Assembly (NCBI GenBank): GCA_964500505.1
Contig: CAZCNN010000003.1
Location: forward strand, 176 to 64,175
DNA: 64,000 bases
Direction: 5' to 3'
From: an uncultured Bdellovibrionales bacterium
GTDB lineage: Bacteria > Patescibacteriota > Minisyncoccia > Moranbacterales > UBA1568
In this document: positions 28,159-50,818 of the stretch, piece by piece
Layout: each line of letters starts with the position of its first letter
Numbering within the stretch: position 1 is the stretch's first letter
Position numbers and translations under genes: made by a program
The notes under the pieces: model-generated
What the model was told of the DNA's origin: nothing
Database searches by the model: none
The model's input: only the letters and a program-made list of their open reading frames with translations

Positions 28159-28187
28159 AGATTCTAGATTCAAGATTCTAAATTCTA
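28159..28187. repeat. heptamer tandem array (AGATTCT-like x4) ending 5 nt before start codon
   Basis: agattctagattcaagattctaaattcta, read directly. Confidence 0.8.
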
Positions 28188-28192
28188 TCCAC

Positions 28193-29464
28193 ATGAAATA
28201 CCAGAAACACACCCTGAAGAATGGACTCCGGATTTTGCTCGCGCCGATGCAAGAGACCCAGACGGCGACAGTGATCGTCATGACCGGGGTAGGGTCACGC
28301 TATGAGACGCGGGCTGAGAATGGTCTGGCGCATTTCCTCGAGCACATGTTCTTCAAGGGGACAGCCAAGCGTCCGACGGCGATGGATATCTCTAAGGAAC
28401 TCGATGCCATCGGCGCCGAGTACAATGCCTATACCGGCAAAGATCGCACCGCCTACTATGCCAAAGTCGAGGCTCATCACTGGGACACAGCACTGGATGT
28501 GGTCAGTGATCTGTTTCTCAATGCCAAGATTGAGCAAGAAGAAATCGACCGTGAGCGCGGACCAGTTCTCCAAGAGCTCAATATGTACGAGGATATGCCC
28601 ATGCGCCATATCGGTGACCTCTGGGAGCTCCACCTCTATGGGGATACGCCGCTTGGCTGGGAGATCATCGGCCCCAAGGAAAACCTCAAGCGGTTTCAGA
28701 GGCGTGACTTTATCAAGTACCTCAATCGTGGTTATGTCGCCGAAAACGTGGTGATTGGCGTCGCTGGCAAGATTGATCCCAAGGTGGTGAAGAAAGAAAT
28801 CGAAAAGCACTTTGCGGGTATCAGAACCGGCAAGAAACCCGTGTTCAAGAAAAACACTAAGAAGCAGTCAGTCCCCGAGGTCTACGTCCAGAACAAGAAA
28901 ACTGACCAGACTCAGCTCATCCTCGGCGTCCGGTCGTACGATATGTATCACCCGGACCGCTATGTGCTCGCAGTCCTCTCGACCCTCCTCGGGGGCGGGA
29001 TGTCGAGCCGACTCTTTATGGCGGTGCGGGAACGGCGCGGACTGGCCTATAATGTCCACACCATGACCGAGAGCTATCATGACGCTGGCTATCTCGCTAC
29101 CCAGGCAGGAGTGGAGCACGAGAACCTGGAGCAGACTATCACGGTCATCCTCGATGAGTACCGGAAAATCGCGACCGAAAAAGTGGATACGGAGGAACTC
29201 AAGAAAGCCAAAGAATATATCAAGGGCAAGCTCGCTATGGGCCTCGAGGGCTCGGACGACGTGGTGGAGTATCTCGTCAGTCAGGAGACCATCCGCGGTG
29301 AGATCACCCTCCCCGAAGAAAAGCGGAAGCACATTGATCGTGTGACGGCCGACGACATTCTCCGCGTGGCTCAGGATATCTTCGTAAATAAGAAGTTGAA
29401 CTTGGCAGTAATAGGACCAAAGGCATCCGAAGCTAAGCTTCGGAGAATGTTGAATGTTGAATGA
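28193..29464 (+). CDS. M16-family zinc metallopeptidase (pitrilysin/insulinase-like)
   Basis: Inverted zinc motif HFLEH near the N-terminus. Two-domain length of 424 aa. Confidence 0.8.
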   Translation: MKYQKHTLKNGLRILLAPMQETQTATVIVMTGVGSRYETRAENGLAHFLEHMFFKGTAKRPTAMDISKELDAIGAEYNAYTGKDRTAYYAKVEAHHWDTALDVVSDLFLNAKIEQEEIDRERGPVLQELNMYEDMPMRHIGDLWELHLYGDTPLGWEIIGPKENLKRFQRRDFIKYLNRGYVAENVVIGVAGKIDPKVVKKEIEKHFAGIRTGKKPVFKKNTKKQSVPEVYVQNKKTDQTQLILGVRSYDMYHPDRYVLAVLSTLLGGGMSSRLFMAVRERRGLAYNVHTMTESYHDAGYLATQAGVEHENLEQTITVILDEYRKIATEKVDTEELKKAKEYIKGKLAMGLEGSDDVVEYLVSQETIRGEITLPEEKRKHIDRVTADDILRVAQDIFVNKKLNLAVIGPKASEAKLRRMLNVE

Positions 29465-29493
29465 AGATGTCGATTCAACAGTGGATGTAGCCT

Positions 29494-29523
29494 ATATTCA
29501 AAATTCTACATTCTAAATTCATC
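29494..29523. repeat. heptamer tandem array (ATTCTA-type) ending 6 nt before start codon
   Basis: tatattcaaaattctacattctaaattcatc. Confidence 0.75.
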
Positions 29524-29529
29524 ACACAT

Positions 29530-30561
29530 ATGACTGTAAACGAACACGTCGAAGTAGGGACGAGGGTGCTCATTCGAGCCGCACTTCTCTTGGCAGTGGC
29601 CTATGTCCTCTATCTCCTCCGAGATGTGGTCGTCTTGGTGCTCCTTGCTGTGCTCACGTCTGCGGCCCTGGTCCCGGCAATCGCCCGACTTCAGAAATTT
29701 GGCCTGTCTCGGACGGCCTCGGTCGTCATCTCGTACTCGCTCCTCTTTTTTGCAGGAGTACTCCTTTTGGCAGTGTTCTTCCCGCTCTTTTTCTCGGAAA
29801 TTAAACAGTTTCTCTTGAATTGGCCGGAGTATGCCAAGCGCCTTGATAGCTTTATGAGTGGACTCCAGAGCTATGCCCAAAGTATTGGAGTCGAGTTCCG
29901 TCAGGATGAGTTCTCGCAGAATATCGAGGGCAACATCTCGCAGTGGTTTACTCAGATTTTCTCGACCACTCTCGATCTTTTCCAGAGCTTTATCCACTTC
30001 ATTGGATACTTCTTCCTCGCTCTCTATCTGTCACTTGAAGAAAAGGGTATCGAAAAATTTTTCCTCCTCATGACTCCCAAGGAGTATCATGCTCAGGCTC
30101 TCTCGATTGCTAGTCGCATGCAGGGCAAGGTCAGTCAGTGGCTCTTTGGTCAGATGCTCCTCATGCTCATCGCGTTCGGAATTTACTACATCGGACTTTC
30201 ACTCCTCGGTGTGCCGTATGCGCTCGCCATCGCTCTCTTCGGGGGGCTGATGGAGATCCTCCCGTATGTCGGCCCAGTCCTCGCTGCCGTCCCAGCCATT
30301 GTCATCGGGCTCCTCTCTTCACCAGTCCTCGGTGCCTCGGCCCTCGCCTTTTATATCGTGGCCCATCAGGTAGAAGCTCATATCGTCGCCCCTCAGGTGA
30401 TGAAGCACTCGGCTGGTCTCAATCCGGTGGCTCTTATCGTCGCTATCCTCATTGGGCTCGAGCTCGGTGGTCCAATCGGTATCATCCTCGCGGTGCCTAT
30501 CACGATGATCCTCTCGGTGTTCGTGGAAGACCTCCTCCTCAAGAAAAGCAATCAGGCCTAA
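29530..30561 (+). CDS. AI-2E family transporter (PerM/UPF0118)
   Basis: 343 aa with about 8 TM helices and the architecture typical of AI-2E permeases. Confidence 0.7.
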   Translation: MTVNEHVEVGTRVLIRAALLLAVAYVLYLLRDVVVLVLLAVLTSAALVPAIARLQKFGLSRTASVVISYSLLFFAGVLLLAVFFPLFFSEIKQFLLNWPEYAKRLDSFMSGLQSYAQSIGVEFRQDEFSQNIEGNISQWFTQIFSTTLDLFQSFIHFIGYFFLALYLSLEEKGIEKFFLLMTPKEYHAQALSIASRMQGKVSQWLFGQMLLMLIAFGIYYIGLSLLGVPYALAIALFGGLMEILPYVGPVLAAVPAIVIGLLSSPVLGASALAFYIVAHQVEAHIVAPQVMKHSAGLNPVALIVAILIGLELGGPIGIILAVPITMILSVFVEDLLLKKSNQA

Positions 30562-30565
30562 TACT

Positions 30566-31252
30566 ATGGATGCTGGAATTTTGTACATCGTCGCGACTCC
30601 TATCGGCAACCTCGGCGATATCACCCTCCGCGCCTTGGAGACACTCAAGAGCGTAGATACGGTGCTTTCCGAAGATACGCGCGTGACTGGGAATCTCCTC
30701 CGGCACTTTGAAATCTCAAAGCCCCTCGTTTCGTTTCATGAGCACACCGAGACTGACAAAGCCGGCAAGCTCATCGCCCGGATGCTCGCGGGTGAGAGTA
30801 TGGCCCTCGTGACGGACGCTGGCACTCCAGGGATATCTGATCCCGGGAATGTCCTGGTAGCCTTGGCGATCGAGTCAGGTGTCCGAGTGGTGCCGATACC
30901 GGGAGCGAATGCTCTCGGGGCCATCGTCAGTGTAGCGGGGATTGATATGCGGGAGTTTGCGTTCCTCGGGTTTCCGCCTCACAAGAAAGGTCGGGAGACA
31001 TTCTTCCGGGGTGTGGCCGAGACTACGATGCCGGTCATCTATTATGAGTCTCCTCACCGGGTGATCAAGAACCTCGAGCTCCTGATGGAACTCGGTCCCA
31101 ACAAAAAACTCGTCCTAGGACGAGAGCTAACCAAAATATTTGAAGAAGTGGTGCGCGGGAGCGTCAGTGAAGTAAAGAGGTATCTTGAGAGTAAAGCAGG
31201 GAAAATGAAGGGGGAGTTTACGATAGTAGCGTATGAAGAAAGAAGAATGTAG
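30566..31252 (+). CDS. rsmI: 16S rRNA (cytidine1402-2'-O)-methyltransferase
   Basis: Tetrapyrrole-methylase fold with the N-terminal motif YIVATPIGNLGDITLRALETL. Confidence 0.85.
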   Translation: MDAGILYIVATPIGNLGDITLRALETLKSVDTVLSEDTRVTGNLLRHFEISKPLVSFHEHTETDKAGKLIARMLAGESMALVTDAGTPGISDPGNVLVALAIESGVRVVPIPGANALGAIVSVAGIDMREFAFLGFPPHKKGRETFFRGVAETTMPVIYYESPHRVIKNLELLMELGPNKKLVLGRELTKIFEEVVRGSVSEVKRYLESKAGKMKGEFTIVAYEERRM

Positions 31253-31323
31253 AATGTGGAATGTCGGACAGAACGTTTAAAAATGACGCGGACCCGACTG
31301 CGTTTGCAATCAGGTCCGGGGGC

Positions 31324-31653
31324 CTAGCGGGGAGTCAGCCACTCCCGTACGCCGGGGCTGAACTGGCCGGCCAGCAGAAGGGCGGTGGAGCCAGCGATGA
31401 TGACCAGCATCACTCCGAGGGCGATAGTGGCCGTACGCGAGTGAATCGCGCGGTCGACCAGGTTGGAAAACCTGGTCCAGCCTTGGAGGATGGCTCGTCC
31501 AACGGCCCGATCAGTCTTGCTCCAGACACTGGAGCCAGCCAACCAGACAGTCAGCTGGACGGTCCAGGTAAATAGCTGGACAAAAGCAAGTCCGATGACC
31601 AGGATGGCCCATTCAGGACCGGAGAATTCCTCTTCGATGATGGGGGCGTCCAT
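31324..31653 (-). CDS. small membrane protein (110 aa, 3 TM), hypothetical
   Basis: Start at an ATG preceded by a ggaggt RBS. Strongly hydrophobic; the competing + strand ORFs lack any features. Confidence 0.45.
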   Translation of the reverse strand: MDAPIIEEEFSGPEWAILVIGLAFVQLFTWTVQLTVWLAGSSVWSKTDRAVGRAILQGWTRFSNLVDRAIHSRTATIALGVMLVIIAGSTALLLAGQFSPGVREWLTPR

Positions 31654-31754
31654 GGGACCTCCTGTTGGGGGGGAACTGACAGCACCGGCGGCACTGTTCA
31701 ATGCAGTATACACCATAAATCCAGTTTTGTCAATAATAATCACTAAAAAATGCC

Positions 31755-33185
31755 ATGAACAAGCCATTTTTTATCACTACGGCTATCGACTATGTGAACG
31801 CGGCGCCCCATGTCGGCCATGCCGTCGAGAAGGTATTGACCGACGTCGTGGCTCGCTATGCCCGCCAGTCACGTCCGACCTACTTCCTTACTGGTTCGGA
31901 CGAGAATAGCCTCAAAAACGTCCAGGCAGCGGAAAAGGCTGGCCGTGAGACGGCTGAGTTTGTAGCCGAAAATGCCGAGGCATTCAAGGCACTGGCTCAG
32001 TCGCTCGATCTTTCATTTGATCAGTTCATTCGGACGACCGAAGAGCGTCACTTTGTTGGGGCTCAAAAGATGTGGTCCGCTTTCAAACCCGAGGACGTGT
32101 ACAAGAAAACATACCGCGGGCTCTACTGTGTCGGCTGTGAAGAATTCAAAAATGAAAAAGACTTGGTGGACGGCAAGTGTCCCGACCATCTGAAGGAACC
32201 AGAAGTCGTTGAAGAAGAGAACTGGTTCTTCAAATTGTCGAACTATGGCGACCGACTCCTCGCCTTGATCGAGAGTGGTGACCTCGCGATCTATCCTGAC
32301 TACCGCAAGAACGAAGTCCTCTCATTTATCAACATGGGACTCGAGGACTTCTCTATCTCGCGCTCGGTGGCTCGCGCTCGGAACTGGGGCGTGCCTGTCC
32401 CAGGGGATGAGTCGCAGATCATGTATGTGTGGGTAGACGCGCTCTCGAACTACATCACGGCGCTGGATTACGCCACAGGCGGGGATTTGTATCAGCAATT
32501 TTGGGCAAATGGGGGGGATAGGGTCCATGTCATCGGCAAGGGCATCCTTCGTTTCCATGCTATCTACTGGCCGGCGATGCTCCTCTCGGCCAACCTCCCA
32601 CTCCCGACCACTATCTACGCCCATGAATACTTGACCATCAATGGTCAGAAAATGTCCAAGTCCCTGGGGAATGTCATCTATCCGAGTGACCTGGTCGCGA
32701 AATACGGTATCGATGGGACGCGCTATCTCCTCCTCACCGCGCTCCCGTATACTCGCGATGGTGATCTGTCATGGGACAAGATGACTGAGAAGTACAATGC
32801 GGACCTCGCCAATGGCCTGGGGAACCTGGTCTCACGTATCGTGAAGCTCAGCGAGAAACTCACGACCGAAGAGGCGAAGCAGATTGAAGTATCCGAAGAG
32901 GGGGTGTCGGGTGCACTCGCACCATTCTTTGCCAAGTTTGATCTCTCGAGTGCCCTCGTCCATATCTGGACCAGCGTCCAGATGCTCAATGAATACCTCG
33001 GCAAAGAAGAACCATGGAAACTTGAGCCGGACACGGAGAAGTTTGTCGAAGTGATGAAGTATGCCAGGCACCAGCTCGCCCAGATCAGTGCTGAGGTGCG
33101 TCCATTTCTCCCCGGGACGTCAGACAAGATAGCGACTGCTCTCGTGACAGGCAAAGTCGAGCCGCTCTTTCAACGAATTGTATGA
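31755..33185 (+). CDS. metG: methionine--tRNA ligase
   Basis: HVGH and KMSKS motifs (KMSKSLGNV). 476 aa. Confidence 0.9.
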   Translation: MNKPFFITTAIDYVNAAPHVGHAVEKVLTDVVARYARQSRPTYFLTGSDENSLKNVQAAEKAGRETAEFVAENAEAFKALAQSLDLSFDQFIRTTEERHFVGAQKMWSAFKPEDVYKKTYRGLYCVGCEEFKNEKDLVDGKCPDHLKEPEVVEEENWFFKLSNYGDRLLALIESGDLAIYPDYRKNEVLSFINMGLEDFSISRSVARARNWGVPVPGDESQIMYVWVDALSNYITALDYATGGDLYQQFWANGGDRVHVIGKGILRFHAIYWPAMLLSANLPLPTTIYAHEYLTINGQKMSKSLGNVIYPSDLVAKYGIDGTRYLLLTALPYTRDGDLSWDKMTEKYNADLANGLGNLVSRIVKLSEKLTTEEAKQIEVSEEGVSGALAPFFAKFDLSSALVHIWTSVQMLNEYLGKEEPWKLEPDTEKFVEVMKYARHQLAQISAEVRPFLPGTSDKIATALVTGKVEPLFQRIV

Positions 33186-33727
33186 AGCTCTCAAAGGAAA
33201 ATTTTGCTTTCGGCGTCCAAGTAGTCATCAAGCAGGGGAACCAGGTATTGCTCACCAAGCGTGAGGATTTTGAGGTCTGGTGTTTGCCTGGAGGGAGTCT
33301 CAATTCACATGAGACGTTTGTTGAGGCAGCGGTCCGCGAAGTTCGTGAAGAAACAGGATTGGAAGTGCGAGTCACCCGTTTGATTGGCGTCTATTCGCGA
33401 CCAAATGAAAATTGCTACAATATGGCGTTTGAGGCAGAGATCGTGAGTGGTACACTTCAGACCTCGAGAGAAGTTATTGAGCTAGACTTTTTTGATCCGA
33501 TGACCTTGCCGGATTACACCATTCACTTTTACCAGAGGATGATAGCGGATGCATTTAGTGGTACAGAGGCGCCGACTGCGTGGAAACTTATTACCCCTGC
33601 GCCATTCGGAGCCATGCATTACCTAGAGCTCTATGCTTTGCGGGATGCTTCGGGTTTGTCGCGCAAGGATTTCTATATGAAACACTTTGGCAATTCGGAT
33701 GAGTACCAAGAGATTCGAGAAGTCTAG
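33182..33727 (+). CDS. NUDIX hydrolase
   Basis: Nudix box GGSLNSHETFVEAAVREVREETGL. Confidence 0.8.
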   Translation: MKLSKENFAFGVQVVIKQGNQVLLTKREDFEVWCLPGGSLNSHETFVEAAVREVREETGLEVRVTRLIGVYSRPNENCYNMAFEAEIVSGTLQTSREVIELDFFDPMTLPDYTIHFYQRMIADAFSGTEAPTAWKLITPAPFGAMHYLELYALRDASGLSRKDFYMKHFGNSDEYQEIREV

Positions 33728-33786
33728 GTGGTAGAAAATGAAAAACGACCGTGGTTCCGGTCGTGAGTGGGTGACACGAGGCTGAC

Positions 33787-33927
33787 TTAGCGCCACATGC
33801 CGGCGAGAGTCTCGCCAATCTCCTGCCAGTAGAACGTTGGGGCAATCAGGCCGACAGCGATGAGCACGACGGAACCCAACAGAAAGTGCAGAATGGCCTT
33901 GGCTCCAAACCTGAGAATTTCTTCCAT
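33787..33927 (-). CDS. small ORF (46 aa) single-TM hypothetical protein
   Basis: Read directly: MEEILRFGAKAILHFLLGSVVLIAVGLIAPTFYWQEIGETLAGMWR. A gggag RBS-like sequence precedes it, and it sits in a 280-bp gap between + strand genes. Confidence 0.3.
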   Translation of the reverse strand: MEEILRFGAKAILHFLLGSVVLIAVGLIAPTFYWQEIGETLAGMWR

Positions 33928-34009
33928 GGGTACTCCCATATGGTTGGTGCCGACATCCTAGCAGAGAAGTATTGTCACCGCAACCCTTTCCCATAAGCCA
34001 ATCCGCCAG

Positions 34010-34939
34010 ATGGCGGACTATAAGCTATCAGCTATGCATGACATCCACACTCACCTCTACTGGCAATCGTACGACACGGATCGGGACGAGGTGGTTCGGC
34101 GTGCCCGCGAGGCCGGGGTGGACAAGATGCTCGTCATCGGCTGTACGGTAGAGGAGAGTCGGCAGGCGATCACGGTGGCAGAGCAGTACCCACAGGTATA
34201 TGCTTCTGTTGGTATCCACCCAAGCTTTTTTAACGAACTGGTTGAAAAATCACCAACGACCAAAATCCAAGATACAAATAATCACCAATCACCAATATCC
34301 AATCTCAAAGGGCTCACGAGTGAGCTACGGGAAATGGCCAAGCACGAGAAAGTAGTGGCGATAGGGGAGTGCGGGTTGGAATATTACGCACATAACTCGG
34401 AACAACCCATTACTGAAGCGCAGAAAGCTGCTCAAAAAGCAGGATTATTGGCTCAGATAGCCCTGGCTGAAGAGCTAGAGCTCCCGATGATCCTTCATTG
34501 TCGTGCCTCTACCGGCAGTGCTGATGCCTACGAGGACCTCTTCGAAATCCTTAGTAATCAACATTCTATATTCGATATTCAACATTCTTCCTGTATCCTC
34601 CACTGCTACATGGGCGATACCGAGGTGACGGAGAGGTTCCTGTCTCTCCCCAATGTTTACTTCTCCTTTACCGGCAACATCACCTATCCGGTGAAGCAGG
34701 TCGTTGTGGGGACGAGGGATGATTTGACCGAAACAGTGAAGATGATTCCGCTTGAGCGGATATTTACCGAGACGGATTGTCCATTTCTCACCCCCCAGTC
34801 CCATCGAGGGGAGCGGAACGAGCCGGCCTATGTGGCCGAGGTACTCGAGTGTATTGCCAGGCTCCACGGGGTCGAGCCAAAAGTGGTCGAACAGTTGACA
34901 GAATCAAATTTCAAAAAGGTCTTTCCCATGGTACAATAG
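34010..34939 (+). CDS. TatD-family metal-dependent hydrolase (DNase)
   Basis: HTHL at the N-terminus and the conserved HCR/HCY metal ligands. It contains a low-complexity insert and an in-frame copy of the intergenic ATTCTA repeat. Confidence 0.8.
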   Translation: MADYKLSAMHDIHTHLYWQSYDTDRDEVVRRAREAGVDKMLVIGCTVEESRQAITVAEQYPQVYASVGIHPSFFNELVEKSPTTKIQDTNNHQSPISNLKGLTSELREMAKHEKVVAIGECGLEYYAHNSEQPITEAQKAAQKAGLLAQIALAEELELPMILHCRASTGSADAYEDLFEILSNQHSIFDIQHSSCILHCYMGDTEVTERFLSLPNVYFSFTGNITYPVKQVVVGTRDDLTETVKMIPLERIFTETDCPFLTPQSHRGERNEPAYVAEVLECIARLHGVEPKVVEQLTESNFKKVFPMVQ

Positions 34940-35030
34940 GGGCACAAACAAGCCTCAATTGTTACCTTGACTTTTACACTAAAAAGGTGTATAATAACAA
35001 GAAGTATTAAGTCTATCTTTCTATAAATCT

Positions 35031-35531
35031 ATGAGCGAGACTGAACTATTAGAACGACAAGGGGTTAAGAAGTCAGTAGATGCAGGTGTTGCGGATGCCT
35101 TACTCCAAGGCCAGCAAGTAGGTGTGGCCGAAGCGAGAGCAAAGCGTGAGGAACAAGAGGCGCGAGAGCGCGCCGAGGTACAGGAGAAACTGGAGTCGTT
35201 TCCGGAAGTAGTTGAGCGAATAAATAAAGAAATCGCACAGGTCAAAGTTGACTTGTTAGATCTCAAGAAGAGAGGCGAGGCTCTTAAGGATCAGATTGAG
35301 AGTAATAATGATCGAATGACTGGTATGAGGGCAGCTCTTGAGAAGCTCGGGAAAAATAAGATTGACTCTCAGGTGGTTGAAGAACACACGAAAACACAAG
35401 AAGCTTTGACTGCGGAGGCTTGGAAGATTAAGGCTGGTTTTGATGCCAAAAGAAAACAATTTGAAGCATTAAGCCAAGAGTTGGCGGATGCTAAGGCTTT
35501 TCAAGAAGCAGTAGAGGGCTCAGGTCAATAA
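35031..35531 (+). CDS. coiled-coil hypothetical protein
   Basis: 166 aa, charged, heptad-like composition (EARAKREEQEARERAEVQEKLE). Confidence 0.45.
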   Translation: MSETELLERQGVKKSVDAGVADALLQGQQVGVAEARAKREEQEARERAEVQEKLESFPEVVERINKEIAQVKVDLLDLKKRGEALKDQIESNNDRMTGMRAALEKLGKNKIDSQVVEEHTKTQEALTAEAWKIKAGFDAKRKQFEALSQELADAKAFQEAVEGSGQ

Positions 35532-35574
35532 TTGATTAAAAATGTTCCCTCAATAATTATTCACACGCAGAACT

Positions 35575-36261
35575 ATGAATCACGCTGAGCAGGCATTTTT
35601 GAAGCCATCAGTAGCGAAACCAACCGAAAAATCTCTCAAGGATGCTACGCTTGTGGCTCTTTCTCTCGAGAAACAGGCAGCGGTAACTGGTGGGCTCTCG
35701 GATAATCAGAAGGATGCCATTGTAAAGAGGCTCGCCGAACAGAATAGGGCGGGTCTGTACGCAGAGGCAAATGGAGGCGATGTGATTGATACAGATTTTG
35801 ATTCATTGTCGGACGAAGAAAAGTTGGCCCAGTTCGATATGGCCAGCGCGGTTTTTCAGGAAGTAGTAGTACCAACGAGTCTTGAGACTAAACAGGCGGG
35901 AGATGAGCAAGTATTAAATCAAATGAATCGTGCGCAGGAGATTTTGAACTTGGATCCGGAAAAACTGAAGTTCGCAAGGGATACCATCCGAACCTATCGT
36001 GAAAAAATAGTCACGGCAGAGGCTGCCGCGCAGAAATCTTTTGAGCGGATACAGCAATTGCAAGCACAGCATGCTCAGGCTGTAGAAAGTAACAGTCCAG
36101 ATGCAGGAAAGATCGATGCACAACTCTCAGCTGAAATCATCAATAACGAGGCATTAGACGCAGCAGTGAGGCGACATGAAACATTTGTTGCTGCGGCTGA
36201 AGTTGCATTTGAAAAGGCATTTAATATCCCGTCTGGAAGCACGACCAAAGAAAAGGCGTAA
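35575..36261 (+). CDS. hypothetical protein, acidic/coiled-coil
   Basis: 228-aa ORF. No family recognised. Confidence 0.45.
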   Translation: MNHAEQAFLKPSVAKPTEKSLKDATLVALSLEKQAAVTGGLSDNQKDAIVKRLAEQNRAGLYAEANGGDVIDTDFDSLSDEEKLAQFDMASAVFQEVVVPTSLETKQAGDEQVLNQMNRAQEILNLDPEKLKFARDTIRTYREKIVTAEAAAQKSFERIQQLQAQHAQAVESNSPDAGKIDAQLSAEIINNEALDAAVRRHETFVAAAEVAFEKAFNIPSGSTTKEKA

Positions 36262-36424: not shown

Positions 36425-36458
36425 AGGGGCGCTGTAAAGCGCCTTTTTTGTTATCAAA

Positions 36459-37272: not shown

Positions 37273-37521
<249 letters not shown>

Positions 37522-41612: not shown

Positions 41613-43043
<1,431 letters not shown>

Positions 43044-43045
43044 GT

Positions 43046-43492
43046 ATGATTAAGCTCAAAGTCGTAACTCCCGAAAAGATGGTGGTGGAGCAGGACGTCT
43101 ATCAGGCGACTCTGCCGGTTCTCCATGGCGAGGTGACGCTTCTCCCGAACCATGTGCCGTATATCGGCGCTCTTTCGGCTGGGGAGATTATGCTCCGATC
43201 CGAACCAAATGGGCCCGAGACGAGTCTCGCGACCTCGGGTGGCTTTGTGGAGTTTCATGACAATGTCCTTTCGATTCTCGCTGATACGGCCGAACGCGCC
43301 GAAGATATTGACGTCACACGTGCCGAAGAGGCTCGCAAACGTGCCGAGGACTTGAAGAAAGAACGAGTCACTATGGACGATGAAGAGTATGCTCGGACCG
43401 CGGCTATGATCGAGAAAGAGATGGCTCGGGTCAAGGTCGCTCGTCGTCACCAGGCCCGTCGTGGACTGAGTCCCGAGAGTTTGGGGCAGTAG
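43046..43492 (+). CDS. atpC: F0F1 ATP synthase subunit epsilon
   Basis: Beta-sandwich plus C-terminal helices. It is the last gene of the operon. Confidence 0.85.
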   Translation: MIKLKVVTPEKMVVEQDVYQATLPVLHGEVTLLPNHVPYIGALSAGEIMLRSEPNGPETSLATSGGFVEFHDNVLSILADTAERAEDIDVTRAEEARKRAEDLKKERVTMDDEEYARTAAMIEKEMARVKVARRHQARRGLSPESLGQ

Positions 43493-43564
43493 AGGTATTT
43501 TGTGAGAATATTCAAAACTCATCTTTCCACGGTCGTGAGAGGATGGGTTTTTTTGTTGAGATTG

Positions 43565-43647
43565 GTGCGGGGTTGACCCCGTTAGAGAACGCTGCGCCCT
43601 TGGCGCGACTTCAGTCGCTCCTAGCGACTTTTCTCTAACGGGGTTGA
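43565..43647 (+). repeat. structured repeat element copy 1 (about 80 nt): 13-bp outer inverted repeat CCCCGTTAGAGAA/TTCTCTAACGGGG enclosing two small hairpins; preceded by GCGGGGTTGACCCC motif
   Basis: Read directly. A second copy lies at 53878..53968 with compensatory changes in the first inner hairpin. Confidence 0.8.
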
Positions 43648-43697
43648 AAAAATCGCTTGTTTAAAGTACAGTGGGGAGGTAACGACCAGAAAATACT

Positions 43698-46133
43698 ATG
43701 AAAAATGGCTACGAACCGAAGAAAATCGAAGGGAAATGGCAGAAGTACTGGGAGAAAAATGGTACCTATCGCCAGTACAAGCGGTCCAAGAAACAGTATG
43801 TTTTGGATATGTTTCCGTATCCTTCCGGGGCGGGACTCCATGTGGGTCATCCCAAGGGCTATATTGCGTCGGATGTCTATGCCCGTTTCAAACAACTGGA
43901 AGGGTATGGTGTGCTCCATCCAATGGGCTGGGACGCCTTTGGGCTCCCTGCCGAGCAGTATGCCATCAAGAACAAAGTGCATCCGAGTGTCGCGGTCAAG
44001 AAAAACATCGCGACGTTCAAAAAACAATTGGAAAAAATTGGCTTTACCTATGATTGGGATCGGGAAATCAATACGACCGATCCAGAGTACTACCGTTGGA
44101 CGCAGTGGATATTCCTCCAGATGTACCACAAGGGCCTGGCCTATCAATCTTTTGATCCGATTAACTGGTGTCCATCATGTCAGACGGGACTGGCCAACGA
44201 AGACTTGGAGCAGGGTCACTGTGAGCGCTGTGGCACTCTCGTAGAAAAGCGTCCGATGCGCCAGTGGGTGCTCAAGATTACAGCCTATGCTGACAAGATG
44301 CTCCGAGATCTCTCGAAACTGGATTGGCCGGAGGGGATCAAAGAAGCCCAGCGGAACTGGATTGGCCGTTCCGAGGGGATGGTGTTCACTTCGCCCGTGA
44401 AAGATACCAAGCTCAAGATAGAAACGTTCAGTGCACATTTTGAGGCCTTTGCGGCTGACACCTTTGTGGTGATTGCTCCTGATCATCCACTCCTCCCGAA
44501 ACTGCTCGACGGTATCGCTGAAAAGGAAGTAATTCTGAAGCAGTGTGAGGAGATGGTGCGCAAGCGAGAAGCGGCGGGGTACGAGACAGAAAAGGAATCT
44601 GAGGGCATTTTTACTGGCCGTTACACGATTGACCCGGTGGGCAATGGCGAGCTCCCGATATGGGTCGCGAGCTATGCGTTGGCGGACTATGGTACCGGTA
44701 TCGTCAAATGTTCGGCCCATGACGAGCGCGATTTTGCTTTTGCTAAGAAATACGGTATTCGATTGAAGCCGGTTTTGTTTCCGGAGGATCAGGCTAAACG
44801 AGAGCAAGTGAAAAATCTCGAATACTGCTACACCGATATGGAGGCGGGTATCCTCATGGAGCCTGCTGCTTTCCAGGGGAAAAAATCAGGAGAAAGTCGT
44901 AAGGATATCATAGCCTATCTGGTCAAGAACAAACTGGCACGCAAGAAAACCACCTATAAGATGCGGGATTGGGTATTCTCTCGTCAGCGGTATTGGGGTG
45001 AGCCCATCCCGATTATTCATTGTGAAGCGTGTGGCGTGGTACCAGTGCCTGAGAAAGATTTGCCAGTGATGCTCCCCAAAGTGAAAGCCTACGAGCCCGC
45101 TGGTACTGGTGAGTCACCACTCGCTACAATCGCTTCATGGGTCAATGTGAAGTGTCCCAAGTGCAAGGGTCCGGCCAAAAGAGAAACCAACACCATGCCT
45201 CAGTGGGCTGGGTCGTCTTGGTACTATCTGCGATTTATTGATACCGAGAACCAGAAGGCACTCGTCGATAAGAAGAAAGAAGAGAAGATGATGCCAGTGG
45301 ATGTCTATGTCGGTGGCGATCATGCAACACGGCATCTTATCTATGCCCGGTTTTGGCATAAATTTCTCTATGACCAGGGGAGAGTGAGTACACCCGAGCC
45401 ATTTAAGCGTCTGGAATTCCTTGGTCTTATCCTAGCATCGGACGGTCGTAAGATGTCCAAGCGCTGGGGGAATGTCATCAATCCGAACGACGTGATTGAT
45501 CAGTTTGGGGCCGATGCCTTCCGTCTGTACGAGATGTTCATGGGACCGTTTACTCAGCACATTGCCTGGAATACAGATGGTGTAGTGGGGACACGGCGGT
45601 TTTTGGAGAAAGTATGGCGATTGCAGGAGAAAGTAGTAGGGAGTAAGCAGAAGGGTGTAAGCGAAGACAAAAATATCGAGAGCCTGCTCCATCAGACCAT
45701 CAAGAAAGTGGGGGAGGATATTGAAGAGTTCAAGTTTAATACTGCCATCAGTAGTCTGATGATACTAGTGAATGCTCTTGAGAAAGAGACCGAGATTCAA
45801 AAAGCTAGATTCGAAACTCTCCTCATTCTCCTCAGTCCCTTTGCTCCACACATGACCGAAGAACTGTGGACCGGGATGGGAGAGAAGAAGTCTATCTTTC
45901 TTGCAGAGTGGCCCAAGTATGACAAGAAAAAAATCGTGGCCGAGTCAGTCAATGTCGCGGTCCAGGTGAATGGCAAAGTACGGGCCGTCCTCGCTATCGA
46001 GAGTGGTATGAATGAAGACGAAGTGAAGGCCATGGCTCTCGCTGATGCCAATGTCCAAATCTATCTCGCTGGTAAATCAGTCCGCAAGATTATCTACGTC
46101 CCTGGTAAAATCGTGAGTATTGTGGTCGGATAA
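43698..46133 (+). CDS. leuS: leucine--tRNA ligase
   Basis: HVGH and KMSKR motifs. 811 aa with a CP1 editing domain. Confidence 0.95.
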   Translation: MKNGYEPKKIEGKWQKYWEKNGTYRQYKRSKKQYVLDMFPYPSGAGLHVGHPKGYIASDVYARFKQLEGYGVLHPMGWDAFGLPAEQYAIKNKVHPSVAVKKNIATFKKQLEKIGFTYDWDREINTTDPEYYRWTQWIFLQMYHKGLAYQSFDPINWCPSCQTGLANEDLEQGHCERCGTLVEKRPMRQWVLKITAYADKMLRDLSKLDWPEGIKEAQRNWIGRSEGMVFTSPVKDTKLKIETFSAHFEAFAADTFVVIAPDHPLLPKLLDGIAEKEVILKQCEEMVRKREAAGYETEKESEGIFTGRYTIDPVGNGELPIWVASYALADYGTGIVKCSAHDERDFAFAKKYGIRLKPVLFPEDQAKREQVKNLEYCYTDMEAGILMEPAAFQGKKSGESRKDIIAYLVKNKLARKKTTYKMRDWVFSRQRYWGEPIPIIHCEACGVVPVPEKDLPVMLPKVKAYEPAGTGESPLATIASWVNVKCPKCKGPAKRETNTMPQWAGSSWYYLRFIDTENQKALVDKKKEEKMMPVDVYVGGDHATRHLIYARFWHKFLYDQGRVSTPEPFKRLEFLGLILASDGRKMSKRWGNVINPNDVIDQFGADAFRLYEMFMGPFTQHIAWNTDGVVGTRRFLEKVWRLQEKVVGSKQKGVSEDKNIESLLHQTIKKVGEDIEEFKFNTAISSLMILVNALEKETEIQKARFETLLILLSPFAPHMTEELWTGMGEKKSIFLAEWPKYDKKKIVAESVNVAVQVNGKVRAVLAIESGMNEDEVKAMALADANVQIYLAGKSVRKIIYVPGKIVSIVVG

Positions 46134-46215
46134 GCCCCAGCTTATAGCTGATAGGGAATAGCTCATAGAAAAATTCAGGGTACCCATTCGACAGGCTTAG
46201 AGTTGTCTGCTGACA

Positions 46216-46254
46216 AGAAAGAAGCCCCGGCGCGGTTGTGCGCAAGGGCGGGGT
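46216..46254 (-). terminator. intrinsic terminator for minus-strand small membrane protein gene
   Basis: Minus-strand ccccgccc...gcgccgggg stem followed by cttctttctt. Confidence 0.5.
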
Positions 46255-46263
46255 TGTGGGGGG

Positions 46264-46446
46264 TCAGAAGGCCCGGAAGTAGAGCTTGGCTCCGCTGGTC
46301 AGGAACAGGCCACCCAAGATGAGCGCCAAGGGCGACCACACAGGTACTGAAGCGAATGCTCCAGCGAGAATGAGGAACACGCCAATGCCGGCGACGATGG
46401 CGCTAGACGCCAAGTACCCTGCTATCTGTGGGTCGATACGAGTCAT
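46264..46446 (-). CDS. small membrane protein (60 aa, 2 TM)
   Basis: aggaggg RBS before the ATG. MTRIDPQIAGYLASSAIVAGIGVFLILAGAFASVPVWSPLALILGGLFLTSGAKLYFRAF. Confidence 0.55.
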   Translation of the reverse strand: MTRIDPQIAGYLASSAIVAGIGVFLILAGAFASVPVWSPLALILGGLFLTSGAKLYFRAF

Positions 46447-46631
46447 GATGACCCTCCTGTTGTGTGCCAGAATCTGGCACGGGGTGAATTTTTAAGGCAC
46501 TGGTAACGACCCATTATAGCAGAAAAATGATAAAAAGTCAAGTGTCGATGTTCAGCAAGGAAAAGTGCTAGAATACGGGTAAGAATGGATTTAACCTAAA
46601 AGCTATAAGCTAACTCCTAATTCCTACCCCT

Positions 46632-48461
46632 ATGTGTGGCATCGTTGGCTATATCGGCAAGCGTCAGGCGAAGGATCTCTTGATCGAGGGATTGCATCGG
46701 TTGGAGTATCGTGGCTACGACAGTGCTGGCGTGGCGCTCGTTGGTGGTAACAAACTGAAACGAGTGCGTGCCTTGGGGAAAGTAGGAGAGCTCGAAAAGA
46801 AAACAGAGGGGATGACACTCGATGCGACGCTCGGTATTGCCCATACGCGTTGGGCCACACATGGCAAGCCGTCTGAGAAGAACGCTCACCCGCATGCTGA
46901 CTGCGCCGGGGCGATTTCACTCGTCCACAATGGGATCATCGAAAACTATACTGAACTGAAAGATGAACTGACCAAGAAGGGTCACCGTTTCTCATCCGAG
47001 ACCGATACCGAGGTAGTAGCCCATCTCATCGAAGAACATACGAAGAAGAGTCAGGATATGGAAGAAGCTTTTGCGCGCACGCTCAAGGATCTCCGGGGGA
47101 CGTACGGCATCGCCATGGTCGCCGTGGCCGAACCAGAACGGCTCTATGTGGCCCGGATGGGGAGTCCACTCCTTATCGGCGTCGGCAAGGACGAATATTT
47201 CGTGGCGTCTGATGTCTCAGCTATCCTCGCTCATACCAAAAAGGTGGTGTATCTCGAAGACGGTGAGCGCGCCGTCATCACCCGTGACGGCTATGTCGTC
47301 CGGTCGGGCCAGGTAGTGCAGAAGAAGACTGTCTCGGATATCGAATGGTCCGAGAAAGAGGCTAAGCGGGGTGGCTTTCCGCATTTTATGCTCAAGGAAA
47401 TATTTGATCAGCCGGAGAGCTTTGCTGATGCGCTCCGCGGGCGACTCCTCCCAGATGAGGGGTCAGTTCGGCTCGGTGGACTGCGCGCCGTAGCAAAGCG
47501 TTTGGAGGGTATACGGCGTATTGTGATCGTGTCATGTGGTACGTCGTACCACGCGGGCCTGGTCGGTGAGTATATGCTCGAGGAATACGCAGGGATCCCG
47601 GTCGAAGTCGAGTACGCTTCGGAGTTTCGCTACCGCAAACCACTCCTCGATAAATACACCGCGGTGCTCGCGCTCTCGCAGTCAGGAGAAACCGCCGATA
47701 CCCTGGCCGCTATCCGTGAGGCCAAGAACAAAGGGGCGCTTGCCCTCGGCATCGTGAACGTCGTCGGCTCGACTATCGCTCGGGAGACTGACGCTGGTGT
47801 CTACAATCATGCAGGGCCAGAGGTGTCGGTGGCATCGACCAAGGCCTTTACCTCGCAACTCGCCGTGCTCTCGCTCCTCGCCCTCTATCTCGGTCGCAAG
47901 CGTGGCATGTCACTCGTCACGGGTCAGCGGATTGCGCGGGAGCTCCTCAAATTGCCACGCCTCATGGAACGGATATTTGAACAGTCCGGTACGATCAAGA
48001 AGCTGGCCAAAAAGTATGCCAATCGCAAGAATTATCTCTACCTGGGACGGAAGTACAATTTCCCGATTGCTTTTGAAGGAGCCCTCAAGGTAAAAGAAAT
48101 CGCCTATGTGTCAGCCCAAGGGTATCCGACCGGTGAGATGAAGCATGGTCCGATCGCCCTCATTGATCGAGAAGCACTCGCGCTCTTTATCATGCCGGTT
48201 GATAGCGTCTACGAGAAAAGCGTGAGTGGTCTCGAGGAGATCAAAGCGCGTGGAGGAACCGTGCTCGCTATCACGACGGAGGGCAACACGGCGCTCGAGA
48301 AGAAGGCTGATGCGGTAGTGTATATTCCGAAGACCCTCGAGATGCTTACCCCTATCCTCTCTGTTATCCCGCTTCAGCTCTTTGCCTACCACATGAGTGT
48401 CGCACTCGGCTACGAGGTGGATCGGCCGCGAAATCTGGCAAAGAGCGTGACGGTGGAATGA
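46632..48461 (+). CDS. glmS: glutamine--fructose-6-phosphate aminotransferase
   Basis: N-terminal MCGIVGY (Ntn Cys), two SIS domains, C-terminal ...TVE. Confidence 0.95.
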   Translation: MCGIVGYIGKRQAKDLLIEGLHRLEYRGYDSAGVALVGGNKLKRVRALGKVGELEKKTEGMTLDATLGIAHTRWATHGKPSEKNAHPHADCAGAISLVHNGIIENYTELKDELTKKGHRFSSETDTEVVAHLIEEHTKKSQDMEEAFARTLKDLRGTYGIAMVAVAEPERLYVARMGSPLLIGVGKDEYFVASDVSAILAHTKKVVYLEDGERAVITRDGYVVRSGQVVQKKTVSDIEWSEKEAKRGGFPHFMLKEIFDQPESFADALRGRLLPDEGSVRLGGLRAVAKRLEGIRRIVIVSCGTSYHAGLVGEYMLEEYAGIPVEVEYASEFRYRKPLLDKYTAVLALSQSGETADTLAAIREAKNKGALALGIVNVVGSTIARETDAGVYNHAGPEVSVASTKAFTSQLAVLSLLALYLGRKRGMSLVTGQRIARELLKLPRLMERIFEQSGTIKKLAKKYANRKNYLYLGRKYNFPIAFEGALKVKEIAYVSAQGYPTGEMKHGPIALIDREALALFIMPVDSVYEKSVSGLEEIKARGGTVLAITTEGNTALEKKADAVVYIPKTLEMLTPILSVIPLQLFAYHMSVALGYEVDRPRNLAKSVTVE

Positions 48462-49188: not shown

Positions 49189-49192
49189 ATCT

Positions 49193-49687
49193 ATGGAACA
49201 ATTGATTATTTTTGGTGCCGAATATCTCTACCTGGCAGTAGTCATCTTGGCTCTTTTCTATCTCCTTATCGTGCCGAAGAAGCAGTCGTCGGAGGTGATT
49301 GTGGCGGCACTCATCGCACTCCCACTCACGTATCTTGTCGCCAAGGGATTGAGCGCGCTCTACTATGATCCGCGACCGTTTGTGGTCGGGCAGTTTGTAC
49401 CACTTATCCCACACGCACCAGACAATGGCTTCCCATCAGATCACACCCTCTTTGTCTCAGCGATCGCAGCGGTAATTTTTGCTTTTGAGCGGCGGCTCGG
49501 CACAGCACTCTTTGTCATTGCCTTCTTGGTGGGGTGGTCTCGGGTCGGGGCTGGCGTCCATCACCTGACGGATATCTTGGGGAGTATGGTCATTGCGAGC
49601 GTGGTGACGTACATTGTCGTCCGTCTGGTACTTTCTCGAGTGTGGCGTCATATGCCACGCGCTCTCAATCATTTTCTCACGCACTAA
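49193..49687 (+). CDS. PAP2-family membrane phosphatase
   Basis: PSDH, SRV and GVHHxxD motifs. 164 aa, polytopic. Confidence 0.7.
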   Translation: MEQLIIFGAEYLYLAVVILALFYLLIVPKKQSSEVIVAALIALPLTYLVAKGLSALYYDPRPFVVGQFVPLIPHAPDNGFPSDHTLFVSAIAAVIFAFERRLGTALFVIAFLVGWSRVGAGVHHLTDILGSMVIASVVTYIVVRLVLSRVWRHMPRALNHFLTH

Positions 49688-49688
49688 C

Positions 49689-50522
49689 ATGGCGCTGCTC
49701 TCAGGAAAATTGATAGCCGAGCGCATTCTTGCTGATACCAAGGAGCGGATAGCTTCATCTCATGTGACTCCGGGTCTGGCGGTCATCCTCGTTGGTGACT
49801 ATATCGAATCACAGAAGTACGTGGCGCTCAAGGAAGAACGGGCCAAAGAAGTAGGAATCCTCTTTGAAAAGCAGGTATTCCCCACGACGGTAAGTCACGG
49901 TGAACTCATTTCGGCCATCTCAGCCTTCAATGATCGACCGGATATCCATGGTATCATCGTCCAGCTCCCGCTCCCCGCTGGGATGCCGACGGATGAAATT
50001 ATCGCTCAGATTGATCCAAAGAAGGACACGGATGGTTTTCATGAGGAAACACTCAAGCGCTTTCTCGGGGGTGATGCCACGGCCTGCCCAGTTTTCCCGC
50101 GAGCGATCGTCGAGCTCATCCGTGAGACAGAGATCGCTTTTCATGGCGAAAAGGCGATTGCGGTTGTGAACTCCAATATCATCGGGCGAGTGCTCGCTTT
50201 TGCACTGTCACTTGAAGGTCTCAAGAGTAAGTACATTCTCCGCGCTGAGGGGAAAGAGGCTATTACTCATGAAATCAAGGAGGCACGAGTGGTGGTGACG
50301 GCCTGTGGTATCCCGGATCTCATCACGGCCGAGATGCTCAGTCCTGACGCTATCGTCATAGATGGAGGCAATGTCCATGTTGATGGCAAGGTGCAGGGCG
50401 ATGTGGCGCGAGCGACAGTAGAACCGAAGATAGCGTATCTCTCACCGGTCCCTGGTGGAGTCGGTCCAGTCACTGTCGCGACCCTCCTCGCTCGTGTCAC
50501 CGATGCCGCGTTGACAAAGTGA
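49689..50522 (+). CDS. folD: bifunctional 5,10-methylene-THF dehydrogenase / cyclohydrolase
   Basis: FolD N- and C-domains (VILVGDYIESQKYV...PVPGGVGPVTVA). Start at MALLSGK. Confidence 0.85.
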   Translation: MALLSGKLIAERILADTKERIASSHVTPGLAVILVGDYIESQKYVALKEERAKEVGILFEKQVFPTTVSHGELISAISAFNDRPDIHGIIVQLPLPAGMPTDEIIAQIDPKKDTDGFHEETLKRFLGGDATACPVFPRAIVELIRETEIAFHGEKAIAVVNSNIIGRVLAFALSLEGLKSKYILRAEGKEAITHEIKEARVVVTACGIPDLITAEMLSPDAIVIDGGNVHVDGKVQGDVARATVEPKIAYLSPVPGGVGPVTVATLLARVTDAALTK

Positions 50523-50569
50523 GGGTGATTCCCTATGCTTCTTTTGTGTTCTTTTGGGATGAGAAATAG

Positions 50570-50652
50570 GCCGAGGTGGTGGAATGGTAGACACACGGGA
50601 CTCAAAATCCCGCGATAGCAATATCATGAGGGTTCAAGTCCCTCCCTCGGCA
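50570..50652 (+). tRNA. tRNA-Leu (anticodon CAA), long variable arm, CCA not encoded
   Basis: Acceptor GCCGAGG/CCTCGGC, anticodon stem CGGGA/TCCCG with loop CTCAAAA, a long variable arm, T-arm GAGGG-TTCAAGT-CCCTC, discriminator A. Confidence 0.85.
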
Positions 50653-50743
50653 CTGGGAATTAACGGAAAACAGGCATTTCGAAGCCTGTTTTTTGTATGA
50701 AAAATTGATAATCAGGGGTCAATGGACTATAATAGAAGCAATG

Positions 50744-50818
50744 GAATTGGGAATATCGAATGGAGAATTTCGAATGAAAAATTCTACCCTATATTCAACA
50801 TTCTATATTCAACATTCT
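50744..50818. repeat. inverted heptamer arrays incl. direct 14-mer TATATTCAACATTC x2, ending 10 nt before parA start
   Basis: gaattgggaatatcgaatggagaatttcgaatg ... attctaccctatattcaacattctatattcaacattc. Confidence 0.75.

Follow-up and report, generated by a model that had tools for sequence, protein, structure and literature searches.

What are the short tandem arrays of seven-nucleotide units that recur in the spacers between genes, and even inside a protein gene, of an uncultured bacterium of the Patescibacteria? We address this question for 64,000 nt of contig CAZCNN010000003.1; this whole stretch is called the window here, and all coordinates count from its first letter. A preliminary description had presented the arrays, many of which lie in the ATP synthase (atp) operon, as a repeat class not described before and had offered three candidate roles: RNA elements that set subunit stoichiometry, binding sites for a modular protein, and remnants of a small mobile element. 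Our analysis partly supports this interpretation. As repeats, the arrays are of a kind already known, since heptamer arrays have been published (PMC4692102, PMC4679880, PMC4990558), and their interpretation moves from regulatory RNA of the atp operon to hairpin elements of the intervening-sequence (IVS) type, with heptamer arrays as arms. In our judgment, the arrays are probably the arms of IVS-type palindromic insertion elements, with or without an open reading frame (ORF), that reside in mRNA spacers as selfish or near-neutral passengers.

The periodicity is real and far from random. When the window was scanned for self-matches at periods 4-14, counting segments with at least 17 of 21 matches, period 7 gave 10 segments, period 14 (the double of 7) gave five and all other periods gave none, compared with a mean of 0.02 in 50 shuffles made in 100-nt blocks; the arrays are thus more frequent than in shuffled sequence. 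A looser threshold yielded 18 segments at period 7 versus 0-3 at other periods. Tandem Repeats Finder recovers essentially all of the arrays described earlier, with period-7 calls at 956-993 (AAAAGCT, 5.4 copies, 100% matches), 28159-28187, 29445-29463, 29492-29520, 31233-31264, 34280-34304, 34558-34587, 37537-37558, 37926-37971, 40504-40533, 40549-40581, 41510-41538, 41563-41581 and 50789-50818, and a period-14 call at 50752-50783. Arrays at 34279-34309, at 38465-38500 and in the pair 46140-46167/46596-46626 had been overlooked and complete the list. Because the arrays recur base for base in independent assemblies of other samples, they are no assembly artefact. With at least three tandem 7-nt units, a mostly intergenic location and statistical over-representation, they qualify as heptanucleotide simple sequence repeats (SSRs).

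At least six unit types occur within the 64 kb, namely GAAT (GAATNNN), ACAAC (ACAACNA), TTTGG (TTTGGNN), CTTATAG, AAAAGCT and AATCACC. The heptamers GAATGTA, TAGAATT and AGATTCT, which had been taken for separate units, form one family with a GAAT core of four bases and three variable bases, kept at no fewer than eight loci. Arms at different loci are 80-90% alike over 30 nt and have a GG in common at the junction of arm and loop. As reported before, the arrays are placed just before start codons: their 3' ends lie 2-14 nt ahead of the next ATG, with one exception at 45 nt, and their starts fall between -23 and +22 nt relative to the upstream stop codon, which they often overlap. The inverted pairs do fold as long imperfect hairpins (-14 to -27 kcal/mol, z-scores -1.4 to -2.7). 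An identity as intrinsic terminators was rejected, as the stems are A+T-rich and without a T run, and none of the hairpins is among the 21 terminator-like sites predicted in 28000-47000. By Pfam, the order of the atp genes is atpB-atpE-[PF05635 gene]-atpF-atpH-atpA-atpG-atpD-atpC (TatD was also confirmed). Every intercistronic spacer of this operon had been said to carry an array; five of the seven do so, while atpB|atpE (37212-37293) holds none and atpD|atpC is 2 nt long ('GT').

A complete element is found between atpE and atpF. Here, the arrays at 37522-37562 and 37927-37974 had rightly been described as inverted partners, and the ORF that they enclose had been overlooked. The left arm (about 4.4 units, ACAACNA-type) begins 1 nt past the atpE stop codon, and the right arm (about six units, TNGTTGT-type), its reverse complement, ends 3 nt before the atpF ATG. 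The loop between both arms is filled by a plus-strand ORF of 119 amino acids (37565-37924) without a promoter of its own, which matches PF05635 with 88.8 bits (cut-off 33.8) and TIGR02436 with 85.1 bits. [quoted passage not shown] In both the minimum-energy and the centroid fold of 37515-37985, the two arms are predicted to pair around the ORF. The element has the PF05635 ORF of an IVS in its loop (the ORF-less hairpins, in turn, are derivatives or relatives only), terminal inverted repeats as a predicted long stem around that ORF, and, as in Coxiella, tandem heptamers directly before the start codon with a copy number that varies among strains. IVSs are located in helix 9, 25 or 45 of the 23S rRNA, and this element lies between atpE and atpF; being outside rRNA, it is IVS-like but no strict rRNA IVS. 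An Rfam scan of the window at gathering thresholds returned a transfer-messenger RNA (tmRNA) and a tRNA-Leu only, and no rRNA.

The association of period-7 arrays with PF05635 genes is general. A metagenome scan with a two-sequence alignment of PF05635 proteins as the query returned 80 loci, and the array counts rest on the 70 of these with both flanks, taken as 130 nt on each side. An array was present upstream of the gene in 48/70 loci, downstream in 44/70 and on both sides in 31/70, whereas the control periods 5, 6, 8, 9 and 10 gave 0-3 each. Array density is 5.8/kb adjoining the gene versus 0.28/kb beyond 300 nt, an approximately 20-fold enrichment, and in 37 of 71 loci the two flanks are mutually reverse-complementary at a score reached by no shuffle. 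Arms contain a median of 4.3 units (quartiles 3.6-4.6). In most cases, the upstream array closes with the PF05635 start codon as its last triplet, and the downstream array opens with the stop codon. Both the architecture and its link to PF05635 are observed. The upstream neighbor is co-directional in 58 of 64 loci, which fits a cistron without its own promoter that is carried on host transcripts. As Rfam found no rRNA genes around any of the 40 loci checked, these elements are not rRNA-embedded. The arrangement also reaches the atp loci of other phyla: inverted heptamer pairs surround PF05635 genes in Pyrinomonadaceae (acidobacterial; L029) and Bacillota (L040), and ORF-less heptamer hairpins occur in atp loci of Blastocatellia, Thermomicrobiales, Nitrospirota and Methylomirabilales. 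In the Bacillota locus (L040, 1076-1588), a heptamer hairpin and a further array flank a 103-amino-acid MazG-like ORF (PF03819, 26.5 bits), so the arms can bracket small genes besides PF05635.

A search of plasmid proteins yielded 29 PF05635 records, mostly from Nostocales and other cyanobacteria and also from Riemerella and Azospirillum. A period-7 array lies on at least one side in 11 of the 12 loci examined, with an inverted arrangement in Calothrix, Geminocystis, Riemerella and Azospirillum; the architecture is thus present on cyanobacterial, Bacteroidota and alphaproteobacterial plasmids. The extent of the cassette can be read from Aulosira, Trichormus and Nostoc punctiforme, whose cassettes are 81-84% identical in three gene contexts. 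The similarity includes both arrays in full, being bounded by the outer edges of the GGAGTCA array on the left and of the TGACTCC array on the right, and the sequences are unrelated beyond; because similarity stops at these edges in three contexts, the arrays belong to the cassette, and its boundaries are observed rather than assumed. Two side observations concern the plasmid copies. Three of the 12 genes lie inside CRISPR-cas operons, in Pseudanabaena (L176), Anabaena sp. 90 (L182) and Picosynechococcus (L181), in the order cas6-ORF-cas4 twice and cas10-ORF-cmr3 once, which could be chance or a preferred niche. Moreover, the PF05635 gene of Pseudanabaena is flanked by about 13 copies of AAAAGCT, the unit of the perfect 5.4-copy window array at 956-993, and this may be a coincidence.

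Close relatives (labeled L001, L081-L090 and L192, where L001 is CAZIZG010000007.1) tell how the elements behave over short evolutionary distances. Among contigs representing one genome per species, the closest AtpA is 94% identical (L001), followed by about 71% in Patescibacteria/Paceibacter genomes. An exact look-up of the AtpE protein gave ten syntenic loci of 14-20 kb from the same clade with AtpE 100% identical; these divide into five near-identical strains and five loci at a greater distance (AtpA 92-94% identical). The public record titles of two contigs are at odds with their content: L001 is titled 'Bdellovibrionales' and L004 (CAYVOI010000001.1) 'Gammaproteobacteria', whereas AtpA identity (94% and 69%, respectively) places both with the window and the Patescibacteria genomes, and the gene order of L001 agrees. 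Both labels are probably binning or labeling errors.

A search of related genomes for the same heptamers had been proposed. Arrays do recur in the clade, but the spacers of relatives are often empty or filled with other heptamers. The atpA|atpG spacer measures 105 nt in the window versus 3 nt in L001, and at this site other relatives carry hairpins of unrelated heptamers (AATTTCT in L081, GAATAGG in L083, TTTTCAA in L089, AAATCAT in L090). At atpD|atpC, the 'GT' of the window is also found in L082, L084 and L001, and a hairpin of 115-118 nt is found in strain L085 and in L081. For atpE|atpF, L001 and L089 have a spacer of 10-12 nt, L081 and L083 an ORF-less hairpin of the ACAAC type, and L090 half a hairpin; the window clade has ACAAC-type arms as in L081 and L083, plus the PF05635 ORF. 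At atpH|atpA, L082 and L084 have a GAAT/ATTC hairpin that is very different from that of the window despite 96-100% identical flanking proteins, and L081 (15 nt) and L090 (25 nt) have spacers without an array. In L090, a divergent PF05635 ORF sits exactly inside the loop of the GAAT/ATTC hairpin between the genes for the M16 peptidase and the AI-2E family protein, which is ORF-less in the window (29442-29524). In strains L085 (10416-10631) and L087 (10461-10631), the PF05635 ORF is truncated with the arms intact; given this truncation, the ORF is dispensable. Lastly, the variable loop of TatD contains different in-frame heptamer-derived inserts in different lineages. Single-arm and ORF-less forms therefore occur at the same sites as cassettes, and insertions are tolerated at stop/start junctions and in a protein loop. 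Because the spacers of relatives are empty or contain other heptamers, the elements cannot count as conserved regulators of ATP synthase. A minor anomaly in this set is atpD of L081 (14307-15698), which is called as two ORFs, suggesting that the gene is frameshifted or a pseudogene, or that the assembly is in error.

Besides this turnover, the unit number changes in 7-nt steps, as is typical of SSRs: the atpF|atpH spacer differs by one unit among strains (42 versus 35 nt; 12 nt in L001), and the right arm of the 37522-37974 element has exactly one unit fewer in strain L192. We also considered whether the elements are miniature inverted-repeat transposable elements (MITEs). In an all-against-all BLAST of the spacers, non-orthologous sites match only 83-92% over 27-59 nt of low-complexity sequence, which is suggestive of MITE-like copies but, owing to the low complexity, not decisive. 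The MITE class was rejected, as units and the GG at the arm-loop junction are common, the loops differ, and no target-site duplications were seen at filled versus empty sites.

How could such elements persist in the middle of essential operons? The complete form (37522-37974) consists of two inverted arrays of about four to six units each, abutting the start and stop of a promoterless PF05635 ORF, and the ORF-less form of arms of matching kind 9-28 nt apart, with single arms as presumed half or decayed copies. Located at stop/start junctions of co-directional genes, the elements would be transcribed within the host operon, and the arms are predicted to pair in the transcript as an imperfect stem of about 25-30 bp. 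By analogy with the IVSs in the 23S rRNA of Coxiella, Leptospira and Salmonella, this stem is probably a site of RNase III cleavage, and the insert may be neutralized or excised at the RNA level with the flanking cistrons remaining functional. A compact stem might also draw the upstream stop and the downstream start together, which would account for the tolerated insertions where relatives have spacers of 2-12 nt. At the DNA level, the arrays change by 7-nt slippage, and their rapid gain, loss and replacement would come about through copying between arrays and recombination between lineages. The mode of spread, as well as the origin of ORF-less forms by ORF loss or by independent spread, we infer.

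Out of the three roles proposed at the outset, the remnant of a small mobile element comes closest, since the arrays serve as arms of discrete cassettes, which some close relatives have and others lack. Nevertheless, a number of points weigh against the elements being IVS-type insertions. Nothing that would signal mobility, such as a transposase or a target-site duplication, was seen at filled versus empty sites. The PF05635 protein of the window itself is found in 16 contigs, and all 10 of those for which the gene order is given have it between atpE and atpF; since these contexts are the same atp site, this copy has not moved recently, and recent transposition of it was rejected. As the flanking codons differ too, the gain in L085 resembles recombination with a lineage that carries a hairpin. 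A second PF05635/TIGR02436 gene of the window (125 amino acids, 18261-18638, plus strand) has flanks with just a weak inverted repeat and without a clear period-7 array; it may be a decayed copy. Cargo other than PF05635 lies between arrays, namely the MazG-like ORF of L040 and a small membrane ORF of the window (46264-46446), and among the cyanobacterial copies that of Pseudanabaena has direct rather than inverted arrays and another has period-8/9 repeats. An RNase III motif search of all sequence examined (window and comparison loci) found no rnc gene. The element model also leaves the unit length of 7 nt unexplained, and the direction of change read from these sequences is compatible with an ORF inserted into a hairpin as well as with one lost from a cassette.

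These points have to be set against what other explanations would require. According to one of them, the hairpins are functional intercistronic RNA elements (for processing, stability or translation) selected to set the stoichiometry of ATP synthase. Arrays in five of seven atp spacers that end 2-14 nt before start codons would suit this, as would stems whose length suffices for an RNase substrate; where hairpins are present, they could plausibly affect expression, and heptamers upstream of recF and recO in Nostoc changed reporter output (bioRxiv 10.1101/2022.06.06.494920). The same junctions, however, contradict it: where AtpA is 92-94% identical, close relatives have spacers of 2-12 nt (in cases 2-3 nt) or unrelated hairpins, the atpH|atpA hairpins are very different in strains with 96-100% identical flanking proteins, and elements also sit at non-atp junctions and in frame in tatD. 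The stems point the same way. Mismatches around PF05635 genes are G-U in 40 cases versus A-C in 41, and those in ORF-less hairpins 49 versus 28 (35 versus 27 non-redundant, by hand count), neither being significant; without an excess of G-U over A-C, complementarity looks made at the DNA level and then decaying, not kept as sense-strand RNA structure. The comparative spacer pattern rules out a conserved role in ATP synthase stoichiometry, and we consider selection for that purpose very improbable. We give even less credence to the arrays being ordinary long SSRs that arise separately at each site by polymerase slippage favoring 7-nt units, with no link to a gene. Strains do differ by exact 7-nt indels, and, in the summary of Mrazek 2007 given in PMC4679880, no class of long simple repeats is more over-represented or abundant in many prokaryotes than the heptanucleotide one, for which slippage was the proposed cause. 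Slippage is likely the source of the unit-number changes, yet it accounts neither for reverse-complement partners (37/71 gene-flanking pairs above every shuffle) and the 20-fold enrichment beside PF05635 genes, nor for cassette similarity that ends at the array edges in different contexts and arms 80-90% alike over 30 nt with a GG at the arm-loop junction.

A further explanation, compatible with IVS-type insertions, is that the arrays are sites for an oligomeric nucleic-acid-binding protein, with one heptamer per subunit; the PF05635 protein is a candidate, or else a cold-shock or S1-type protein. Such a protein would control, protect or propagate the elements. A GAAT core with three variable bases at eight or more loci (Xanthomonas units, GGGANTN, are built likewise), arms of about four units (mostly four in Xanthomonas arrays) and the physical tie of the PF05635 gene to arrays in several phyla all speak for it. 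The only solved homolog, 2GSC (X. campestris XCC0516), has five chains in its entry, and the family is related to Avd, a protein of diversity-generating retroelements (DGRs). Avd binds nucleic acid. On the other hand, at least six unit types in 64 kb face two visible PF05635 genes, arrays persist in strains with a truncated ORF, other small ORFs serve as cargo (MazG-like in L040, minus-strand membrane ORF in the window), and S23p, the Coxiella protein of this family, is undetected (PMC4990558). All in all, we regard array binding by such a protein as unlikely. In a more specific form of this idea, the PF05635 protein, probably as an Avd-like pentamer, would be the trans-acting partner that reads about one heptamer per subunit and binds, protects or propagates arms of 4-5 units; we put this forward tentatively, as a possibility with a small chance, and core spacing, arm length, linkage, 2GSC and Avd kinship are compatible with it. 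If true, the protein and the ORF-less hairpins would form a system like that of repetitive extragenic palindromic (REP) sequences and REP-associated tyrosine transposases (RAYTs) across many phyla, and this would explain both the heptanucleotide excess of cyanobacterial STRR (repetitive sequences that are short and tandemly repeated), Xanthomonas, Beggiatoa and bacteria of the candidate phyla radiation (CPR), and the function of a very common 'hypothetical' family.

Returning to the window and to the insertion elements as we see them, the remaining copies range from single arms to full hairpins. The direct AAAAGCT array of 5.4 copies (956-993) ends 2 nt before the ATG (996) of a 310-amino-acid membrane protein, and its left partner amounts to one unit (GCTTTT, around 946-951). 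Single arms are found at 28159-28187, where four ATTC-type units fill the spacer between the genes for glycyl-tRNA synthetase and M16 peptidase (9 nt past the stop, 5 nt before the ATG), and at 31235-31266, where about four GAAT-type units overlap the stop codon of the TP_methylase gene; a single direct TTTGGNN-type array (38465-38500) fills atpF|atpH. The ORF-less hairpins have arms 9-28 nt apart. That at 29442-29524 starts with a GAATGTT arm of three units over the last codons and stop of the M16 peptidase gene, has a 28-nt centre and ends with an ATTC-type arm 5 nt before the AI-2E ATG. Hairpins of the GAAT/ATTC type occupy atpH|atpA (38908-38966), atpA|atpG (40503-40580; 4+4 units, -24.5 kcal/mol) and atpG|atpD (41509-41582; -26.8 kcal/mol, the first unit overlapping the atpG stop codon), and another (50744-50818) lies 9 nt before the ATG (50828) of a ParA-type ATPase gene, with tRNA-Leu(CAA) at 50570-50653, about 90 nt upstream of it.

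In tatD, one in-frame array had been reported, at 34555-34592, and this is confirmed: it is of the ATTC type, lies on the plus strand, encodes HSIFDIQH and shares 90% identity with the right arm of the atpA|atpG hairpin across 30 nt. It is not the only one, as an AATCACC-type array (34279-34309, plus strand) is likewise in frame and translated within the variable loop of TatD. The widest pair comprises a CTNATAG-type arm just past the stop codon of the leucyl-tRNA synthetase gene (46140-46167) and its inverted partner, a CTAWAAG-type arm that ends 5 nt before the GlmS ATG (46596-46626), enclosing about 430 nt. Within this region (46134-46631), the inverted CTTATAG/CTATAAG arrays surround a minus-strand ORF of 60 amino acids (46264-46446), a predicted membrane protein with no Pfam match, which is preceded by a near-consensus promoter-like site (46541-46513, 11/12 matches plus an upstream TG).

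Several other features were seen alongside. Small G+C-rich palindromes (CCTGCCCG...CGGGCGGG, TCCGCCAACTGGCGGA) form a second class nested in heptamer arrays, at L082 7385-7450 (a 12-amino-acid in-frame TatD insertion), L089 6642-6710, the atpH|atpA spacer of L083 and upstream of the PF05635 gene of L104. Presumably, they are comparable to the small dispersed repeats within Nostoc heptamer repeats. In the atp operon, the array-free atpB|atpE spacer (37212-37293) is conserved across the clade and contains a promoter-like TAGACA-17-TAGAAT (37218-37246). In the spacer before atpB (36262-36458), about 55 nt form a block with 82-95% conservation, and there is a promoter-like site (36396-36424) with a terminator-like hairpin (36425-36446) directly after it; internal promoters, or a leader, may exist in this operon. 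A repeat of 102 nt (43549-43650 and 53870-53971; 79% identical) with nested G+C-rich stems and no Rfam match lies past atpC in one copy and upstream of the gene at 54049 in the other. Its copies differ in a compensatory manner (GCGCCCTTGGCGCG versus GTGCCTTCGGCAC; GTCGCTCCTAGCGAC versus GTCGCTGGGAGCGAC), and it perhaps represents a structured RNA, or an element resembling a terminator, without earlier description. Finally, the tmRNA gene is at 6308-6710 on the minus strand (tag peptide ANFITKTKNAIAQAFAPSYSLALA), and 55600-64000 is packed with direct repeats of 140-300 nt (62-98% identical; families D1-D14) within a very large repetitive coding region that is probably a surface protein.

Two phenomena have been described separately for about 30 years, namely the heptanucleotide excess (STRR and others) and the small ORF of the 23S rRNA IVS, the 'four helix bundle protein'. 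Our results indicate that STRR-type arrays and the IVS ORF are parts of one element type, in which inverted arrays are the arms and PF05635 is the usual cargo. What appears to go beyond earlier description is the location in mRNA spacers, the abundant ORF-less form in a Patescibacteria genome and the quantified association with PF05635 across phyla. In a reduced genome of this kind, hairpins without an ORF are able to occupy stop/start junctions within essential operons. From this, we predict that RNase III cleaves operon mRNAs at the hairpins, that the protein binds the arrays, and that gene copy number and array counts covary across genomes. In practice, such spacers should not be taken for conserved regulatory RNAs, as they are hotspots of strain variation and of in-frame protein insertions.

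Lastly, we compare the elements with known systems. With REP sequences, bacterial interspersed mosaic elements (BIMEs) and REP doublets forming hairpins (REPINs), they have in common that they are short, dispersed intergenic palindromes, and that a gene is flanked by inverted copies of its repeat, as in a REPtron. They differ in that this gene is PF05635 (a four-helix bundle of 120 amino acids without known catalytic activity) and not the tyrosine (HUH-type) transposase of a REPIN-RAYT pair, although no systematic domain scan of the window ORFs was made. In addition, the arms are tandem heptamer arrays of several unit types instead of one fixed palindrome.

The heptamer repeats of cyanobacteria and Xanthomonas are closer. 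Mazel in 1990 is said to have given CCCCAGT, TTGGTCA and CAACAGT as the units of STRR1-3, and the window units match none of these, being the same repeat kind in other sequence families. STRR have reportedly also been seen in RNase P RNA (Vioque, 1997), and small dispersed repeats in Nostoc heptamer arrays (Elhai, 2008). The GGGANTN arrays of Xanthomonas have mostly four units, are about 90% intergenic, occur as convergent pairs in 70 of 186 cases and vary between close species (PMC4692102). The STRR found in heterocystous cyanobacteria and the GGGAATC/GGGGAYT repeats of Xanthomonas and Nostoc (Rehm 2015, PMC4692102) resemble the window arrays in their 7-nt units with a conserved core, usual number of four, intergenic location, frequent inverted stem-loop pairs, and variability of length and sequence among close relatives, and the Nostocales PF05635 cassettes carry GGAGTCA-type arrays of this very kind. 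The window units, on the other hand, have other, AT-rich sequences without G-quadruplex potential and a host among the Patescibacteria. The literature searched on these repeats makes no connection to PF05635 genes, and, in a searchable library that is incomplete, we found no general link of PF05635 to heptamer arrays or STRR beyond the single case of Coxiella. The TAACTGA arrays of marine Beggiatoaceae, cyanobacteria and Bacteroidetes (MacGregor 2015, PMC4679880) are similar in placement, with two to six heptamers a few nucleotides upstream of start codons in ribosomal-protein and other essential operons, 7-nt-step indels and absence from the orthologous spacers of close relatives. They are nearly all direct (one inverted set is reported), have one dominant unit and were interpreted as binding sites of a translational regulator.

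The nearest relatives, however, are the rRNA IVSs of Coxiella burnetii and Leptospira. The window elements lie in mRNA spacers and inside a protein gene instead of rRNA helices 9, 25 and 45, most copies are ORF-less, and RNase III cleavage of their hairpins is assumed by analogy. In the remaining respects, the correspondence is close. The Coxiella IVS comprises 428 nt with a terminal stem of 28 bp and an S23p (PF05635) ORF; depending on the strain, the S23p start codon is immediately preceded by two or three tandem GACAGAT units, at the first of which RNase III cuts, and the ORF is decaying, with the protein apparently not made (PMC4990558). The window elements thus have in common with these IVSs a loop ORF of the same family, inverted repeats with a stem of about 28 bp, strain-variable heptamers before the start codon, a sporadic occurrence among relatives, and an ORF that is dispensable and decaying.

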